Positions 52,639-62,432 of a stretch of 64,000 bases of DNA are shown here, one piece after another (the stretch's first letter is position 1; each line of letters starts with the position of its first letter). The stretch lies in NCBI RefSeq assembly GCF_003018255.1, contig NZ_CP027440.1; one strand, 5' to 3'. This stretch comes from Escherichia coli. Lineage in GTDB: Bacteria > Pseudomonadota > Gammaproteobacteria > Enterobacterales > Enterobacteriaceae. Position numbers and translations under genes: made by a program. The notes under the pieces were generated by a model. It worked only from the letters and a program-made list of their open reading frames with translations, was not told where the DNA came from and did not search any database.

Positions 52639-55049
52639 TTGCACGTTGGTTCTGGCGCGAATGGCGCTCGCCGTCGCTATTAATTGTCTGGCTGGCGCTA
52701 AGCCTGGCGGTGGCCTGCGTGCTGGCGCTGGGCAATATCAGCGATCGCATGGAGAAGGGCTTAAGCCAGCAAAGCCGGGAGTTTATGGCGGGCGATCGGG
52801 CGTTGCGCAGTTCACGCGAAGTGCCACAAGCGTGGCTGGAGGAAGCGCAAAAGCGCGGCCTGAAAGTCGGCAAGCAGCTGACTTTCGCCACAATGACCTT
52901 TGCAGGCGACACACCGCAGCTGGCGAACGTCAAAGCGGTGGATGATATCTACCCGATGTATGGCGATCTGCAAACTAATCCCCCTGGCCTGAAACCGCAG
53001 GCGGGCAGCGTATTGCTGGCCCCACGCCTGATGGCACTGCTTAACCTGAAAACAGGCGACACCATCGACGTGGGTGATGCCACCTTGCGGATTGCCGGAG
53101 AAGTGATTCAGGAACCGGATTCCGGTTTTAACCCCTTCCAGATGGCTCCGCGTCTGATGATGAATCTGGCGGATGTCGATAAAACCGGAGCCGTGCAGCC
53201 GGGGAGTCGGGTCACCTGGCGCTATAAATTCGGCGGCAGCGAGAACCAGCTCGACGGCTATGAGAAATGGTTGTTACCCCAGCTTAAACCTGAACAACGC
53301 TGGTACGGTCTGGAACAGGACGAAGGCGCGCTGGGGCGATCGATAGAACGTTCGCAACAGTTCCTGCTGCTTTCGGCGCTTCTGACCTTGCTGCTGGCGG
53401 TGGCGGCGGTTGCGGTGGCGATGAATCATTACTGTCGCAGTCGCTACGACTTGGTGGCGATCCTCAAGACGCTGGGGGCAGGGCGAGCGCAACTGCGTAA
53501 GTTAATCGTCGGTCAGTGGTTGATGGTGCTGGCGCTTTCAGCCGTTACCGGTGGTGCGATAGGCCTGTTGTTCGAAAACGTGTTGATGGTGCTGCTCAAG
53601 CCCGTTTTGCCTGCTGCACTACCGCCAGCCAGCCTCTGGCCGTGGTTGTGGGCGCTGGGCACCATGACGGTCATCTCGCTGCTGGTGGGGCTACGACCGT
53701 ACCGCTTGTTGCTGGCAACGCAGCCTTTACGCGTATTACGTAATGATGTGGTCGCGAACGTCTGGCCGCTGAAGTTTTATCTGCCGATTGTCAGTGTGGT
53801 GGTTGTGCTGCTGCTCGCCGGATTAATGGGTGGCAGCATGCTGCTTTGGGCGGTGCTGGCGGGCGCGGTAGTACTGGCTTTGCTGTGCGGTGTGCTGGGC
53901 TGGATGCTGCTGAATGTACTTCGCCGCATGACGCTGAAATCGCTACCTCTGCGCCTGGCGGTTAGCCGCCTGTTACGTCAGCCGTGGTCAACGTTAAGCC
54001 AGCTTTCGGCATTTTCGCTCTCCTTTATGCTGCTGGCGCTGTTGCTGGTATTGCGTGGCGATCTGCTCGACCGCTGGCAGCAGCAGCTACCTCCAGAAAG
54101 CCCGAACTACTTTTTAATTAACATCGCCACAGAACAGGTAGCACCGCTAAAAGCGTTCCTCGCGGAACATCAGATAGTCCCGGAATCGTTTTATCCGGTG
54201 GTGCGGGCGCGGCTGACGGCGATTAACGATAAGCCGACAGAAGGCAATGAAGATGAGGCGCTCAATCGCGAACTCAATCTTACCTGGCAAAATACGCGGC
54301 CCGATCATAATCCGATTGTCGCCGGTAACTGGCCGCCAAAAGCCGATGAAGTGTCGATGGAAGAGGGGCTGGCGAAACGCTTAAACGTTGCCCTCGGTGA
54401 TACCGTGACTTTTATGGGCGATACCCAGGAGTTCCGCGCTAAAGTGACCAGCCTGCGCAAAGTGGACTGGGAAAGTCTGCGGCCTAATTTCTATTTTATT
54501 TTCCCTGAAGGGGCATTAGACGGGCAACCGCAGAGCTGGCTTACCAGTTTCCGCTGGGAGAATGGCAACGGCATGTTGACGCAACTCAACCGCCAGTTCC
54601 CTACTATTAGCCTGTTAGACATTGGCGCGATTTTAAAACAGGTCGGTCAGGTGCTGGAGCAGGTAAGTCGGGCGCTGGAGGTGATGGTGGTGCTGGTCAC
54701 CGCCTGCGGTATGTTGCTGTTGCTGGCACAGGTGCAGGTGGGAATGCGTCAGCGTCATCAGGAGCTGGTGGTGTGGCGCACACTCGGTGCGGGGAAAAAA
54801 CTGCTGCGTACCACGTTGTGGTGTGAGTTCGCCATGCTTGGGTTTGTTTCTGGCCTGGTAGCCGCAATTGGTGCGGAAACGGCGCTGGCAGTGTTGCAGG
54901 CGAAAGTGTTTGATTTTCCGTGGGAGCCAGACTGGCGATTGTGGATTGTGCTGCCGTGCAGCGGTGCACTGCTGCTGTCGCTTTTCGGCGGCTGGCTGGG
55001 TGCGCGACTGGTTAAGGGTAAGGCGCTGTTCAGGCAGTTTGCGGGATGA
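52635..55049 (+). CDS. ybbP: FtsX/MacB-like ABC permease YbbP
   Basis: 804-aa ORF overlapping ybbA by 4 nt; duplicated FtsX-type TM bundles. Confidence 0.93.
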   Translation: MIARWFWREWRSPSLLIVWLALSLAVACVLALGNISDRMEKGLSQQSREFMAGDRALRSSREVPQAWLEEAQKRGLKVGKQLTFATMTFAGDTPQLANVKAVDDIYPMYGDLQTNPPGLKPQAGSVLLAPRLMALLNLKTGDTIDVGDATLRIAGEVIQEPDSGFNPFQMAPRLMMNLADVDKTGAVQPGSRVTWRYKFGGSENQLDGYEKWLLPQLKPEQRWYGLEQDEGALGRSIERSQQFLLLSALLTLLLAVAAVAVAMNHYCRSRYDLVAILKTLGAGRAQLRKLIVGQWLMVLALSAVTGGAIGLLFENVLMVLLKPVLPAALPPASLWPWLWALGTMTVISLLVGLRPYRLLLATQPLRVLRNDVVANVWPLKFYLPIVSVVVVLLLAGLMGGSMLLWAVLAGAVVLALLCGVLGWMLLNVLRRMTLKSLPLRLAVSRLLRQPWSTLSQLSAFSLSFMLLALLLVLRGDLLDRWQQQLPPESPNYFLINIATEQVAPLKAFLAEHQIVPESFYPVVRARLTAINDKPTEGNEDEALNRELNLTWQNTRPDHNPIVAGNWPPKADEVSMEEGLAKRLNVALGDTVTFMGDTQEFRAKVTSLRKVDWESLRPNFYFIFPEGALDGQPQSWLTSFRWENGNGMLTQLNRQFPTISLLDIGAILKQVGQVLEQVSRALEVMVVLVTACGMLLLLAQVQVGMRQRHQELVVWRTLGAGKKLLRTTLWCEFAMLGFVSGLVAAIGAETALAVLQAKVFDFPWEPDWRLWIVLPCSGALLLSLFGGWLGARLVKGKALFRQFAG

Positions 55050-55477
55050 TGAGAGTAAATAAGGGGCGTTCTGGTTGAATGGAACGCCTTGTTTAAATTA
55101 ATTCTACAATATGTTTCATTGATGATGTTATTGAATTGGTGATTTCCTATCTTTCTATTGCTGATATTAATCTGAATCGGTGGAGTTTAATGATTTTAAA
55201 TATAGCCCTACAAAAATAACTCAGACTAATAAAATCATAAATCATATGCGTTGAATGGATATTATCCATATAGTGAATTTGTTGATAATGAATTCATCTG
55301 TGCTAAAAATGTTAGTTTAATAAAATATTGAAAGTGACCTGTAATAACAGTTGTTGTTGATTGAGAACAAATAAGTTTATGTGAAAAATATATAAATACA
55401 TTAGCTGGTCTTGTGTGTCATTTTATTTTTTTGTTGCTAACACAGGGATATGAACAATAACTAAAAGGGCACTTTAT

Positions 55478-56933
55478 ATGAGCGGAAAACCAGCGGCGCG
55501 TCAGGGAGATATGACTCAGTATGGCGGTCCCATTGTCCAGGGTTCGGCAGGTGTAAGAATTGGCGCGCCCACCGGCGTGGCGTGCTCGGTGTGTCCGGGC
55601 GGGATGACCTCGGGCAACCCGGTAAATCCGCTGCTGGGGGCGAAGGTGCTGCCCGGCGAGACGGACCTTGCGCTGCCCGGCCCGCTGCCGTTCATTCTCT
55701 CCCGCACCTACAGCAGCTACCGGACGAAGACGCCTGCGCCGGTGGGGATTTTTGGCCCCGGCTGGAAAGCGCCTTCTGATATCCGCTTACAGATACGCGA
55801 TGATGTACTGGTACTCAACGACAACGGCGGACGGAGCATTCACTTTGAGCCGCTGCTGCCGGGTGAGGCGGTGTACAGCCGCAGCGAGTCCCTGTGGCTG
55901 GTGCGTGGCGGTAAGGCAACGCAGCCGGACGGCCACACGCTGGCACGGCTGTGGGCGTCGCTGCCGCCGGATATCCGGTTAAGCCCGCATCTTTACCTGG
56001 CGACCAGCAGCGCACAGGGGCCGTGGTGGATACTGGGGTGGTCTGAGCGGGTGCCGGGTGCTGAGGACGTACTGCCAGCGCCGCTGCCGCCGTACCGGAT
56101 GCTTACCGGGCTGGCGGACCGCTTCGGGCAGACGCTGACGTACCGGCGTGAGGCCGCCGGTGACCTGGCCGGGGAAATCACCGGCGTGACGGACGGTGCC
56201 GGGCGGGAGTTCCGTCTGGTGCTGACCACGCAGGCGCAGCGGGCGGAAGAGGCCCGTAAACAGCACACCGCTTCCTTATTTTCCCCTGACACCCCCCGCC
56301 CTCTTTCAGACTCTGCGTTCCCCGACACACTGCCCGGTACGGAATACGGCCCCGACAGGGGCATCCGTCTTTCGGCGGTGTGGCTGATGCACGACCCGGC
56401 ATACCCGGAAAGCCTGCCCGGTGCGCCACTGGCGCGGTACACGTATACGGAAGCCGGTGAACTGCTGGCGGTATATGACCGCAGCAATACGCAGGTGCGC
56501 GCTTTCACGTATGACGCGCAGCACCCGGGCCGGATGGTGGGGCACCGTTATGCGGGAAGGCCGGAGATGCGCTACCGCTACGACGATGCGGGGCGGGTGG
56601 TGGAGCAGCTGAACCCGACAGGCCTGAGTTACCGCTACCAGTATGAGCAGGACCGCATCACCATCACGGACAGCCTGAACCGGCGAGAGGTGCTGCATAC
56701 AGAAGGCGGGGCCGGGCTGAAGCGGGTGGTGAAAAAAGAACTGGCGGACGGCAGCGTCACGCACAGCGGGTATGACGCGGCAGGAAGGCTCACGGCACAG
56801 ACGGACGCGGCGGGACGGCGGACAGAGTACGGCCTGAATGTGGTGTCCGGCGATATCACGGATATCACCACGCCGGACGGGCGGGAGACGAAATTTTACT
56901 ATAACGACGGGAACCAGTTAACGGCGGTGGTGT
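55478..56933 (+). pseudogene. rhsD: Rhs polymorphic toxin gene, 5' fragment (PAAR-like N-terminus + start of YD-repeat core), cut by IS
   Basis: MSGKPAARQGDMTQYGGPIVQGSAGVRIGAPTGVACSVCPGG...; YD repeats; frame runs 12 codons into the IS and stops at 56969-56971; locus between ybbP and selU = K-12 rhsD position. Confidence 0.9.
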
Positions 56934-56967
56934 CCTTGACCCACGATATTCAGACAGTCGTTGTATC

Positions 56968-57849
56968 TTAAGTTGACGTTACCCGCTGACGTCGATATTC
57001 CCTTGGTGAGAGATAACCTAACGCACTATGCGGATGGGTTTCATTGTAATGCTCGATCGCCACTGCAAGGTTATGCAATGCCGTTCTTACATTCGGTTTC
57101 GGCATGAACGCGATGTAGTCTTCTTTCATCGTTTTCACGAACCTTTCTGCCATTCCATTGCTCTGAGGGCTACTGACTGCCGTTGTGCAGGGCTCCAGAT
57201 TCAACTCTCTGGCGAACTGCCGTGTTTCATGAGCTGTATAAGCCGAACCGTTATCAGTCAGCCACTGGATTGGCCGTTCCGCTCCTTTATCGCCAAAGCG
57301 TTTTTCTATTGCTCCTAACATGACATCCTGCACCGTTGCTTTGTCATAACCTCCCGTGCTTGCGGCCCAGTCTATGGCTTCACGATCGCAACAGTCCAGT
57401 GCGAACGTGACACGCAGTTTTGCGCCATCATCACAACCGAACTCAAAGCCATCGGAACACCAGCGCTGGTCGCTTTCCTTCACCGATATTCGGCCTTTAT
57501 GTTCCCGCTGCGGCCGTGAAGGTTTGTCATGTAACAACAACAGGTTATTTTCGCTCATTATCCGATAAACGCGCTTTGCATTCACGAACGGCACTCCTTT
57601 GTTACGGGACTGTCGTCTGAGAATGGCCCAGACACGACGATAGCCATATGTCGGCATATCGCTGATGATATCAAGGATACGTGCTAACACTTCCGCATCC
57701 GCAGCCTCATCACATCTGCGACGACGTTTATTCGGCTTATTACCAGATGTTTTCATCCGTTGTGCCAGTTGCGCACGCGACACGCCCAGAATACGGCTTA
57801 CCAGGGTTATTCCTTGTCCGTTGGCAACAAGGGCGCATGCGCTATCCAT
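56968..57849 (-). CDS. IS2-group transposase OrfB (DDE integrase core)
   Basis: 293-aa ORF; [25 protein letters not shown] (D,D,E); strong by-eye similarity to IS2 InsD. Confidence 0.9.
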
Positions 57850-58199
57850 TTTCGCGACTGACCATACTCCACCGCTTCTTTGAGGATCTCAACTTCCATG
57901 GTTTTCTTACCCAGCAAGCGCTGTAACTCTTTTATTTGTTTTATAGCGGCAGCCAGTTCTGAGGCAGGAACGACATCCTCTCCGGCAGCAACAGCAGTGA
58001 GACTTCCTTCCAGATATTGTTTTTTCCACTTAAACAACAGGCTGGGCTGAATACCATGCAAACGCGCCACATGGGACACCGTCATACCGGGTTCCATTGT
58101 CTGCTGAATAATGGCGATTTTTTCCTGAGGAGTTTTACGTTTACGAAGCTCCTGCCCCAGCAAAATTCCAGTCATCTCAAAATTAGCACTAGTAGACAT
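57807..58199 (-). CDS. IS2-group transposase OrfA (HTH)
   Basis: [38 protein letters not shown]...[19 protein letters not shown] resembles IS2 InsC; start uncertain (ATG 58199, 58175 or 58232); overlaps orfB by 43 nt in the -1 frame. Confidence 0.85.
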
Positions 58200-58263
58200 A
58201 TATCCAAGCCTATCTCTTATTTTAAGATACATCCACTGTCTGGCGTTTCAAGGGGCCGGTTCA

Positions 58264-61038
58264 CAGTTAACGGCGGTGGTGTACCCGGACGGGCTGGAGA
58301 GCAGCCGGGCATATGATGAGCTGGACAGACTGGTATCGGAGACATCGCGCAGCGGGGAGACAGTACGCTACCGCTACGATGACGTGCACAGTGAGTTACC
58401 GGCGACGACAACGGATGCGACGGGCAGCACCCGGCAGATGACCTGGAGCCGCTACGGGCAGTTGCTGGCCTTCACCGACTGCTCGGGCTACCAGACCCGC
58501 TATGAATACGACCACTTTGGTCAGATGACGGCGGTCCATCGTGAGGAAGGCATCAGCACGTACAATACCTATAACCCGCGCGGCCAGCTGGTCAGCCGGA
58601 AAGACGCACAGGGCCGTGAAACGCGGTATGAATACAACGCCGCAGGCGACCTGACTGCCGTTATCACCCCGGACGGCAACCGGAGCGAGACACAGTACGA
58701 TGCGTGGGGAAAGGCGGTCAGCACCACGCAGGGCGGGCTGACGCGCAGTATGGAGTACGATGCTGCCGGACGTGTCATCAGCCTGACCAACGAGAACGGC
58801 AGTCACAGCGACTTCAGCTACGATACGCTTGACCGGCTGGTACAGCAGCGCGGCTTTGACGGGCGGACGCAACGTTATCATTATGACCTGACCGGAAAAC
58901 TCACGCAGAGTGAAGATGAGGGGCTTGTCATCCTCTGGTACTACGATGAATCGGACCGTATCACTCACCGCACGGTGAACGGCGAACCGGCAGAGCAGTG
59001 GCAGTATGATGGCCACGGCTGGCTGAGAGAAATCAGCCACCTGAGCGAAGGCCACCGTGTTGCCGTCCACTATGGCTACGACGATAAGGGCCGTCTGACC
59101 GGGGAGCGCCAGACGGTGGAGAACCCGGAGACGGGGGAACTGCTGTGGCAGCATGAGACGAAACAGGCATACAACGAACAGGGGCTGGCAAACCGCGTCA
59201 CGCCGGACAGCCTGCCGCCGGTGGAGTGGCTGGCCTATGGCAGCGGTTATCTGGCGGGCATGAAGCTGGGCGGGACGCCGCTGCTGGAGTACACGCGCGA
59301 CCGCCTGCACCGGGAGACGGTGCGCAGCTTCGGCAGCATGGCAGGCAATACAGCCGCATATGAACTGACCAGCACTTACACCCCCGCAGGCCAGTTACAG
59401 AGCCGGCACCTGAACAGCCTGGTGTTTGATTGTGACTATAACTGGAATGACAACGGCGACCTGATGCGCATCAGCGGCCCGCGACAGACGCGGGAATACG
59501 GCTACAGCGCCACGGGCAGGCTGGAGAGCGTGCGCACCCTCGCACCGGACCTGGACATCCGCATCCCGTATGCCACCGACCCGGCGGGCAACCGGCTGCC
59601 GGACCCGGAGCTGCACCCGGACAGTACACTCACAGTGTGGCCGGATAACCGAATCACCGAAGACGCGCACTACCTGTACCGTTACGATGAATACGGCAGG
59701 CTGGCGGAGAAGACGGACCGCATCCCGGCGGGTGTGATACGGACGGACGACGAGCGGACCCACCACTACCACTACGACAGCCAGCACCGCCTGGTGTTCT
59801 ATACGCGGATACAGCATGGCGAGCCACTGGTCGAGAGCCGCTACCTTTACGACCCGCTGGGCCGCCGGACGGGTAAACGGGTGTGGCGTCGCGGGCGTGA
59901 CCTGACAGGATGGATGTCGCTGTCGCGTAAACCGGAGGAGACGTGGTACGGGTGGGACGGCGACAGGCTGACGACGGTGCAGACTGACAGCACGCGTATC
60001 CAGACGGTGTACCAGCCGGGAAGCTTCACACCGCTCATCCGCATCGAAACAGACGTGACCGAACTGGAGAAAGCGCAGCGGCGGAGCCTGGCGGAGAAGC
60101 TCCAGCAGGAAGGGAGCGAGGACGGACACGGCGTGGTGTTCCCGGCTGAACTGGTGCGGCTGCTGGACAGGCTGGAGGAAGAAATCCGGACAGACCGCGT
60201 GAGCAGTGAAAGCCGGGCGTGGCTTGCGCAGTGCGGGCTGACGGTGGAGCAACTGGAAAAACAGGTGGAGCCGGAATATACACCGGCGCGAAAAGTTCAT
60301 CTTTACCACTGCGACCACCGGGGCCTGCCGCTGGCGCTTATCAGCGAAGACGGCAATACGGTGTGGAGCGCGGAGTATGATGAATGGGGAAACCTGCTTA
60401 ATGAGGAGAACCCGCATCATGTGTATCAGTCATACCGTCTGCCGGGGCAGCAGCATGATGAGGAGTCGGGGCTGTACTACAACCGGAACCGGTACTACAA
60501 TCCGTTGCTGGGACGATATATTACTCAGGACCCGATTGGGCTGGCGGGGGGATGGAGTCTGTATGCGTATCCGCTGAATCCGGTGAATGGTATTGATCCA
60601 TTAGGATTAAGTCCTGCAGATGTAGCGTTAATGCGAAAAAAAGAACAATTAAACCATCAAAGAGCATGGGATATATTATCTGATACTTATGATGATATGA
60701 AGAGATTAAATTTAGGTGGGACTGATCAATTTTTCCATTGTATGGCATTTTGTCGAGTGTCTAAATTAAATGACGCTGGTGTTAGCCGATCAGCGAAAGG
60801 GCTGGGTTATGAAAAAGAGATTAGAGATTACGGGTTAAATATGTTCGGTATGTACGGCAGAAAAGTAAAGTTATCCCATTCTGAGATGATTGAAGATAAT
60901 AAAAAAGACTTGGCTGTAAATGAACATGGGTTGACATGTCCATTAACACAAGATTGCTCAAATAGATGTATTGATTATATTAATCCAGAGCATAAAAAAA
61001 CGATAAAGGCTTTACAAGATGCTGGCTATCTCAAGTAA
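58264..61038 (+). pseudogene. rhsD: Rhs polymorphic toxin gene, 3' fragment (YD-repeat core + C-terminal toxin tip)
   Basis: Frame [23 protein letters not shown]... continues the 5' fragment exactly; YD repeats throughout; core ends [27 protein letters not shown] (to 60609). Confidence 0.9.
60610..61035 (+). other. Rhs C-terminal variable toxin domain (142 aa), AT-rich
   Basis: Begins right after the PxxxxDPxGL core-terminating motif; composition switches abruptly from GC-rich core to AT-rich tip; five Cys; by-eye serum-amyloid-A-like motifs (see findings). Confidence 0.7.
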
Positions 61039-61510
61039 CATCTCAAAGATGGTAATATTTATTTTTGCTATTATAATCGTTGTTTTTTTATGCGTGACTA
61101 CTTATCTTTATTTACACAAAGATGAATCTCTTGTAAGTAAGCATTACATAAACTATATGGCAATACCAGAAAGTGATGGGGTTTTTACATGGCTCCCAGA
61201 TTTTTTTCCGCACGTAGCGGTGGATATATCAATATCCACAAATGTAGAAGATGATTATTTTTTTTCTTATTTTTCCCTAACAATCGATGATGGGGGGAGG
61301 TTTAAGAAAACATTGACTGTGAGGGCCAGGGAACAAGTGGCGAAAATCGTATCAGAGAATGATCCAGATACAAAAAAAGTGTGGTGTAAATATGGTAAAA
61401 TACCAGGGCAAGGGGATAGCGTAAACCTTTTTTTTGTTGGTGAAATTAATGTTACGCATTATTTTATAACAAATATTGGAGCTGGGTTACCTGATGCTTG
61501 TGCAGAGTAA
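61019..61510 (+). CDS. Candidate Rhs immunity protein with N-terminal TM anchor
   Basis: 163-aa AT-rich ORF overlapping the toxin 3' end by 20 nt; hydrophobic helix [22 protein letters not shown]; position typical of rhsI genes. Confidence 0.65.
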
Positions 61511-61876: not shown

Positions 61877-61972
61877 ATTAGCGGAAAACCAGCGGCACGC
61901 CAGGGTGACATGCCCCAGTACGGCGGCCCGATAGTCCAGGGTTCAGCGGGGGTACTGATAGTCGCGCCGACT
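61877..61972 (+). pseudogene. Orphan Rhs N-terminal (PAAR-like) fragment, start codon ATG->ATT
   Basis: ATTAGCGGAAAACCAGCGGCACGCCAGGGTGACATGCCCCAGTACGGCGGCCCGATAGTCCAGGGTTCAGCG... aligns to 55478-55573 of the main rhs (ISGKPAARQGDMPQYGGPIVQGSAG); similarity ends about 61972. Confidence 0.8.
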
Positions 61973-62024: not shown

Positions 62025-62432
62025 TCAGTATCGTCTTTTGAGATTCTCAAGGTTATGGAGTAACCAGACAGAACGGACACCACTGTCGGAGATAAAAACC
62101 CCCTGTTTACGCAGCTCGTTGCTGGCCCGGTGCTGACCATGTGTCGGGAAAGCGACGGCGTAATCAACAACAGCCTGTTCAATTGCCTCATCGGTACGGT
62201 TCTTAAGGTTAGGAGCGCGGCGACTACGATTAATCTGCGCATCCACACCGCCTTCAGCGGCCAGTTCGCGGTAACGATAAAACGTATCACGCGAAACGCC
62301 CATGATTTTACAGGCTTTTGATACGTTGCTGAGTTCTTCAGCCAGATTGAGCAAACCGGCTTTGTGTTTGATGACGGGATTGGCAGTATGAAGCATGAGA
62401 GTTACCTCTTGTTTTGGATAAGGATTCGACAC
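62025..62432 (-). mobile_element. Truncated transposase N-terminal fragment (HTH only; ylbG-like, probably IS481-type)
   Basis: 135-aa ORF: ...LSNVSKACKIMGVSRDTFYRYRELAAEGGVDA...; no DDE core follows; no terminal IRs identified. Confidence 0.6.

Follow-up and report, generated by a model that had tools for sequence, protein, structure and literature searches.

Polymorphic toxins, including RHS proteins, can carry as their toxin tip a prok-SAA (serum-amyloid-A-like) domain, one family of the Lipocone domains (Burroughs et al., eLife 2025, PMC12419801). The catalytic positions inferred for prok-SAA are a His in H2, a Glu in H3 and an sNxxGR motif in H4. The domain is predicted to act from the periplasmic side on membrane lipids or lipid carriers, cleaving their phosphate-containing head groups; undecaprenyl-linked cell-wall precursors are given as example substrates (PMC12419801). 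The immunity proteins found for Lipocone toxins were, without exception, transmembrane (TM) proteins or lipoproteins, with the periplasm or the membrane as their expected place of action, and one of them, Imm-SAA, was described as one alpha-helix and four beta-strands with four absolutely conserved cysteines (PMC12419801). In Escherichia coli EDL933, an in silico study modelled the tip of RhsD (z0651) as SAA1-like and named the downstream open reading frame (ORF), z0654, RhsDI, having seen no informative motif in z0654 (Vazquez-Lopez and Navarro-Garcia 2020, PMC7216683). Here we analysed 64,000 nucleotides (nt) of E. coli DNA (contig NZ_CP027440.1 of assembly GCF_003018255.1; this whole stretch is called the window below) in which an Rhs gene with such a tip overlaps the gene ybbD. 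We propose, with a probability of roughly 0.7, that YbbD is the cognate immunity protein, and that it is held in the inner membrane and uses a periplasmic domain to intercept the SAA-type Lipocone toxin encoded upstream.

The toxin tip and ybbD are arranged as follows.
60610..61038, + strand: C-terminal toxin tip of the Rhs protein, prok-SAA Lipocone type and of the K-12 ylbH type, GC content 0.345 (assigned by Pfam, PDB, hidden Markov model (HMM) and ylbH matches)
61019..61038, + strand: ybbD/Rhs overlap of 20 nt, translational coupling probable, the same 20 nt being found in contigs L005-L008
61019..61510, + strand: ybbD, 163 amino acids (aa), candidate cognate immunity protein of the YbbD family

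A sequence-only reading of the window had described a 163-aa AT-rich ORF starting 20 nt before the toxin stop, and this description was borne out. The ORF list of the window gave a 163-codon, ATG-started frame at the ybbD position, and the stop of the upstream 920-codon Rhs frame fell at 61038. The GC content was 0.35 for the ybbD ORF and 0.345 for the final 438 nt of rhs, whereas the Rhs core had 0.62 and the entire window 0.52. The shared strand, the 20-nt overlap and the equally low GC content suggest that the tip and ybbD form one module. The module is orthologous to ylbH-ybbD of K-12, which occupies the same site between ybbP and ylbG-selU and is covered by the same models (NF011298 and PF26610). 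In both K-12 and EDL933, ybbD carries frameshifts in T runs that leave an 86-aa head, whereas the frame in the window is intact at 163 aa. In the window and in EDL933 the main Rhs core itself carries the tip as a fusion, whereas in K-12 the tip is displaced behind rhsD-ybbC. Unlike its K-12 and EDL933 counterparts, the Rhs gene of the window carries an insertion sequence (IS).

By sequence criteria, the tip of the window Rhs is a prok-SAA Lipocone domain. In the 179-aa C-terminal query, the RHS_core and Rhs_assc_core matches ran no further than residue 37. Pfam SAA matched the tip with E=3e-4, which is under the gathering score, and the PDB sequence matches were SAA proteins in every case (E 0.18-1.5). 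An HMM was made from 41 published Prok-SAA domains (Burroughs et al.), with the two enterobacterial Rhs entries excluded. This model scored the window tip at 58.8 bits (single-sequence E 2.8e-20), compared to at most 8.1 bits for 200 shuffles of the tip. The Salmonella bongori Rhs tip and human SAA1 scored 56.9 and 84.2 bits, respectively, and the K-12 RhsD tip, which was also in the target set, was not among the matches listed (down to ~0 bits). Two close relatives of the tip, Pragia WP_074823867.1 and Kluyvera HAU8267270.1 (the latter sharing ~48-53% identity with the window tip), are themselves on the published Prok-SAA list. In the tip alignments, the inferred catalytic positions H50 (FFHC), E77 (KEIRD) and VN111xHG114 were invariant, and the last Arg of the sNxxGR motif was Leu or Ile in tips of this type. 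Five cysteines were also invariant, which would fit an oxidising compartment. By analogy, the enzymatic activity and target of the tip would be those predicted for prok-SAA.

In seven enterobacterial contexts, a YbbD-family gene directly followed or overlapped an SAA-type Rhs tip.
E. coli, this window: reference tip; 20-nt overlap
Contigs L005-L008, probably Hafnia or a relative: tip 89% and YbbD 71% identical to the window; 20-nt overlap
Salmonella bongori: SAA-type tip; 4-nt overlap
Metagenomic contig L016: SAA-type tip; 1-nt overlap
Kluyvera intermedia: SAA-type tip in an array of orphan Rhs modules; 4-nt overlap
Pragia fontium: SAA-type tip on a full-length PAAR-type Rhs, lipoprotein-type YbbD; 1-nt overlap
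Phytobacter ursingii: SAA-type tip on a full-length PAAR-type Rhs, lipoprotein-type YbbD; 1-nt overlap

Identities across the seven pairs were 43-89% for the tips and 28-71% for the YbbD proteins. The lower values for YbbD suggest faster divergence of the downstream protein, the usual pattern among immunity proteins. The sequence-only reading had proposed a candidate immunity gene with a membrane anchor and had asked if homologues follow other rhs tips. The proposal fits both the overlap with the toxin gene and the occurrence of homologues after the same tip family in seven lineages, so that the family is indeed associated with polymorphic-toxin loci. Two further arrangements were seen. In the Kluyvera intermedia array (L018, 1-5135), an Rhs 3' end with a 174-aa ORF is followed first by an orphan SAA-type tip with its YbbD-family ORF and next by another Rhs fragment with a 194-aa ORF, forming a K-12-like stack of displaced toxin/immunity pairs. 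Contigs L003 and L004 show a ybbD-type gene near pbpC.

To describe the YbbD protein itself, we placed the following features on the gene.
61052..61114, + strand: N-terminal signal-anchor helix, residues 12-32 (from Kyte-Doolittle hydropathy, the AlphaFold2 (AF2) model, homologues and charge bias)
61190..61210, + strand: family signature W-L-P-x-F-F-P, residues 58-64, just C-terminal of the anchor
61385..61387, + strand: Cys123, nearly invariant, probable disulfide partner of Cys161 (24-sequence alignment and family cysteine positions)
61499..61501, + strand: Cys161, nearly invariant (same alignment and cysteine positions)

The strongly hydrophobic N-terminal helix followed by a soluble domain, which had been noted from the letters of the DNA, was recovered at residues 12-32, where the best 19-residue Kyte-Doolittle window reached 3.0; this was the sole strongly hydrophobic segment. 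In the 24-sequence YbbD alignment, W58, L59, P60, F63 and P64 were invariant or almost so. The AF2 model was confident (pLDDT 83.9, pTM 0.70), with the anchor helix at 3-36, strands at 39-45, 68-75, 80-86, 101-103, 120-127, 135-142 and 147-154, and further helices at 89-97 and 105-114. No solved structural relative of YbbD was found. Each of the ~20 full-length family members begins with a hydrophobic stretch; in some this is a long TM-type helix, in others a lipoprotein signal (lipobox variants LSGC, LCGC, LTAC or ISC). Over 19 TM-anchored members, the N flank of the helix holds 48 positive and 2 negative charges, and the 15 residues C-terminal of the helix hold 32 positive and 61 negative ones. 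This charge pattern indicates, as far as sequence can, an N-in/C-out orientation of the family, and together with the lipobox variants it suggests that the soluble domain is placed outside the cytoplasm. YbbD would then be periplasmic, and a C123-C161 disulfide would be expected to form there. Pairing with an SAA-type tip, combined with the alternation of TM anchor and lipobox, suggests that the antidote, and hence the site of toxin action, is at the periplasmic face of the membrane. The tethered reading of YbbD also agrees with the published Lipocone immunity proteins, all of which are TM proteins or lipoproteins.

The resemblance to those proteins extends to gene position. Imm-SAA, Imm-BamE and others, as well as TipC of TelC, are like YbbD in being encoded directly after a Lipocone tip, in having a TM anchor or lipobox and in facing, by prediction, the periplasm. 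As a membrane-anchored protein following a prok-SAA toxin, YbbD occurs in the same setting as the Imm-SAA context 'TM+Imm-SAA' (PMC12419801 table). YbbD does not fit Imm-SAA itself, since its AF2 model has seven strands and only C123 and C161 are conserved; the two are set apart here by description only. The YbbD name and sequence strings were absent from the text and supplements of PMC12419801 that were examined, and the supplements listed no gene neighbourhood for either of the two enterobacterial Rhs tips. We raise only tentatively, as something short of an even chance, the idea that the YbbD family is an unclassified immunity fold, distinct from Imm-SAA, that neutralises SAA-type Lipocone toxins at the periplasmic face.

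The colicin M immunity protein, Cmi, is a small periplasmic protein with an N-terminal inner-membrane helix and a disulfide, and it protects against a toxin that cleaves lipid II. The logic proposed for YbbD is the same: a signal-anchored periplasmic domain would guard lipid-linked cell-wall precursors against an imported toxin. In the proposed mechanism, the 20-nt overlap would couple translation of YbbD to that of the toxin, and the signal-anchor helix would insert YbbD into the inner membrane with N-in/C-out topology. A domain of ~125 residues with an alpha/beta fold, probably stabilised by the Cys123-Cys161 disulfide, would then sit at the periplasmic membrane face, bind the incoming toxin domain and block its access to the lipid substrate. 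We infer physical binding and neutralisation of the tip by YbbD from these features.

The ORF is not a new gene but the intact form, and orthologue, of K-12 ybbD (b0501), and in the RefSeq genome NZ_AP045067 this ORF bears the name 'YbbD family protein'. NCBIfam NF011298 (PRK14710) matched the window protein over residues 1-163 of 163 with 373.4 bits (cutoff 326), and NF011297, the 86-aa 'head' model, gave 166.8 bits, under its cutoff of 173. Pfam PF26610 (YbbD_head) is assigned, as a precomputed match, to the 99%-identical cluster representative P0001 and to homologues. A Pfam scan of the ORF and 24 family members, using a library copy without PF26610, gave no meaningful or recurrent match. 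A HMMER search against 1.84 billion cluster representatives (at 50% identity) returned 49 YbbD relatives at E <=1e-3. About 20 of these are full-length (140-183 aa) and 21-33% identical to the window protein. The largest protein cluster is the 163-aa form, with 1365 member sequences.

Two candidate relatives were rejected. Locus L024 (Chitinophagaceae), one of four loci from a search with a narrower YbbD alignment, proved to be a chance WLPDFFPE match in an unrelated 289-aa protein. Kinship to YdcD, whose ORF follows a different Rhs gene in strain DETEC-S792, was set aside because the BLASTP likeness was confined to the hydrophobic helix; YdcD is assigned to a separate family, NF050020. NCBIfam NF007301 (PRK09781, 181 aa) was distantly related to the YbbD family, with E values of 1e-7 to 1e-17 for many members, and could represent a paralogous enterobacterial immunity family.

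The sequence-only reading had compared the locus to K-12 RhsD and its neighbour YbbC, and had found no resemblance between YbbC and the ORF. We obtained the same result: BLASTP of the ORF against K-12 YbbC gave no alignment at E values up to 100, and the YbbC Pfam family PF15631 did not match the window ORF at E up to 1. YbbC is likewise the product of a short immunity-type gene placed behind an Rhs tip at this locus, but it has no detectable sequence likeness to YbbD, and the toxin tip that it follows is a different, unrelated one. The further claim, that the toxin tips of the window and of K-12 RhsD are related, did not hold. Likeness between them was limited to 31 residues at the YITQDP...DPxGL core boundary, and the window tip is instead of the ylbH type. 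The gene order in K-12 is rhsD, ybbC, ylbH (b0499, a pseudogene and orphan Rhs C-terminal fragment), ybbD (a pseudogene), ylbI, ylbG and selU, and the order ybbP-rhs-ybbD-ylbI-ylbG-selU is shared with the window. The window tip and ORF were 96% identical in nucleotides to K-12 ylbH and ybbD.

These comparisons decide between the two explanations offered earlier for a familiar tip followed by an unfamiliar immunity gene. Since the tip is of the ylbH type and unlike RhsD beyond DPxGL, an error in the toxin alignment is the right one. Replacement of the immunity family beside an unchanged toxin was rejected, as the tip departs from K-12 RhsD past DPxGL and equals ylbH. The window thus carries, fused to its main Rhs core, a module that K-12 keeps as a displaced and decayed orphan behind rhsD-ybbC. 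The K-12 ylbH and ybbD pseudogenes are therefore best explained as a displaced older toxin/immunity module. Window 60363-60572, a core segment of ~210 bp, has two counterparts in K-12, one at the end of the rhsD core and one at the 5' end of ylbH, and appears to be the kind of repeat across which such modules get exchanged or deleted.

Several observations weigh against an immunity role for YbbD. We found no functional study of ybbD or ylbH in the literature, where most 'ybbD' matches concern an unrelated Bacillus gene, and the charge bias of the window protein itself across its helix is weak. Stand-alone YbbD homologues exist in Achromobacter (L011-L015, 7001-7510) and Intestinirhabdus alba (L023, 4959-5459), and no Rhs gene was found in the 5-7 kb on each side of them. 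Finally, many E. coli copies are broken. The gene is present in single copy in 2766 of 5426 complete E. coli genomes, and for 59 of these, taken at even steps through the 2766, we recorded the length of the ybbD match. It was 492 nt, the intact length, in 17 of the 59, and was 491 nt in 25, 490 nt in 11 and 493 nt in 6, suggesting that ~70% of the sampled copies are frameshifted. Four frameshifted or variant copies were examined, and every indel fell in one of three homopolymeric T runs.
61201..61207, + strand: T run, indel site
61258..61265, + strand: T8 run, T7 in K-12 and EDL933, which cuts YbbD to the 86-aa 'head'
61428..61435, + strand: second T8 run, T7 in EDL933, and frameshift site of the 149-aa variant P0002

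The one-base deletion in K-12 ybbD, relative to the window, is in the T8 run at 61258-61265. It is possible that such frameshifts turn immunity on and off. In EDL933 (O157:H7; L026, 1-1761) and in L027 (1-1756), a seemingly intact full-length Rhs with a conserved SAA-type tip stands next to a frameshifted ybbD. An intact Rhs-SAA beside a frameshifted ybbD is unexpected if YbbD is the sole protection against that toxin.

The frameshifts also support the strongest alternative, namely that ybbD is an immunity gene by ancestry in a module that is now silent and unselected in E. coli, the window representing a lineage not yet hit. The annotation of K-12 ylbH and ybbD as pseudogenes, the binding of their region by H-NS/StpA and the splitting of the window Rhs gene by an IS3-family element point in the same direction. 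To examine selection, we calculated the ratio of nonsynonymous to synonymous substitution rates (dN/dS), which for ybbD was 0.35 relative to a 71%-identical orthologue and 0.23 relative to K-12; the Rhs tip gave 0.20 and 0.38 in the same two comparisons. The ybbD values of 0.23-0.35 show past purifying selection, also within E. coli, and this, together with the size of the 163-aa cluster (1365 members), argues against decay. On balance we consider a decaying remnant unlikely. It is compatible with the immunity reading, because it concerns the present usefulness of the module and not the action of the protein. The K-12 ybbC-ylbH-ybbD region, known to be bound by H-NS/StpA, is also free of transposon insertions, which an earlier study took as possible essentiality; the binding of H-NS/StpA accounts for this absence.

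The stand-alone homologues touch on a second alternative, in which YbbD is an envelope protein without a neutralising role, serving for example as an Rhs accessory factor or chaperone, or as a linked housekeeping membrane protein. The Achromobacter gene is at a fixed site, always between a GGDEF/EAL gene and a TctC gene. The stand-alone genes may be orphan immunity genes or may have another role. For YbbD of the window we regard the envelope-protein alternative as improbable.

That the ORF is a chance frame in AT-rich DNA, as its composition, its weak Shine-Dalgarno (only AAGG, 10-13 nt 5' of the start) and the lack of a consensus promoter on the + strand might suggest, is already refuted by its length (0.2% of shuffled versions of the 1.1-kb AT-rich region contained a stop-free run of >=163 codons), its conserved family (49 representatives, some 21-33% identical), purifying selection and a confident fold prediction. 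The GC content of ybbD by codon position was 0.43/0.33/0.29. In the ORF list of the window, no plausible competing gene over ybbD was seen on either strand, and an Rfam search gave no match. Promoter and terminator scans gave nothing beyond shuffle expectation, and the + strand was without a promoter-like site. A terminator-like hairpin and T run at 61178-61196 (+), within ybbD at the WLPDFFP codons, is probably a chance occurrence, because the number of such sites was within shuffle expectation.

The window contains the E. coli ybbP-rhs-ylbG-selU(mnmH)-allS locus, and upstream of the tip the Rhs gene is organised as follows.
55478..56933, + strand: Rhs 5' part with a PAAR-like N-terminus (MSGKPAARQGD...) and YD repeats (ORF list, blastn)
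56934..58263, - strand: IS3-family insertion element splitting the Rhs gene, with transposase ORFs at 57807..58232 and 56968..57849
58264..60609, + strand: remaining Rhs YD-shell/core up to the DPLGL boundary motif, GC content 0.62

The element was delimited by blastn against the intact Rhs of NZ_AP045067, where the alignment covered 55000-56933 and picked up again at 58264. Copies of it that are 99.5% identical are found on many plasmids, annotated 'IS3 family transposase'. The insertion divides the Rhs gene into 497 codons on the 5' side and 920 codons on the 3' side, so that the toxin is hardly deliverable in the window strain, while ybbD is intact. E. coli DETEC-S792 (L017, 1-7639) has a ybbD region 100% identical to the window and two tandem full-length Rhs genes. 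There, ydcD and ISAs1 copies follow the first Rhs gene, and the second is without the IS3 insertion; the window therefore differs from DETEC-S792 upstream of the ybbD region. Downstream of ybbD, an Rhs N-terminus remnant at 61877-61972 (+) (ISGKPAARQGDMPQYGGPIVQGSAGV..., compare the Rhs start at 55478) corresponds to the K-12 pseudogene ylbI, and is followed by a ylbG HTH (helix-turn-helix) fragment at 62025-62432 (-).

The gene, its family models, the pseudogene status in K-12 and the in silico 'RhsDI' proposal are already known. What is new is the pairing of YbbD with prok-SAA tips across taxa, the alternation of anchor and lipobox that points to a periplasmic location for YbbD, and the finding that the family has no solved structural relative. 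If the immunity reading of YbbD is true, the Rhs(SAA-tip)/YbbD pair would be a genetic system for studying the activity of the SAA domain and its lipid target, as well as the evolutionary origin of the animal acute-phase protein. With such a pair of toxin and antidote, E. coli would permit suppressor genetics, profiling of lipid intermediates and co-crystallisation.

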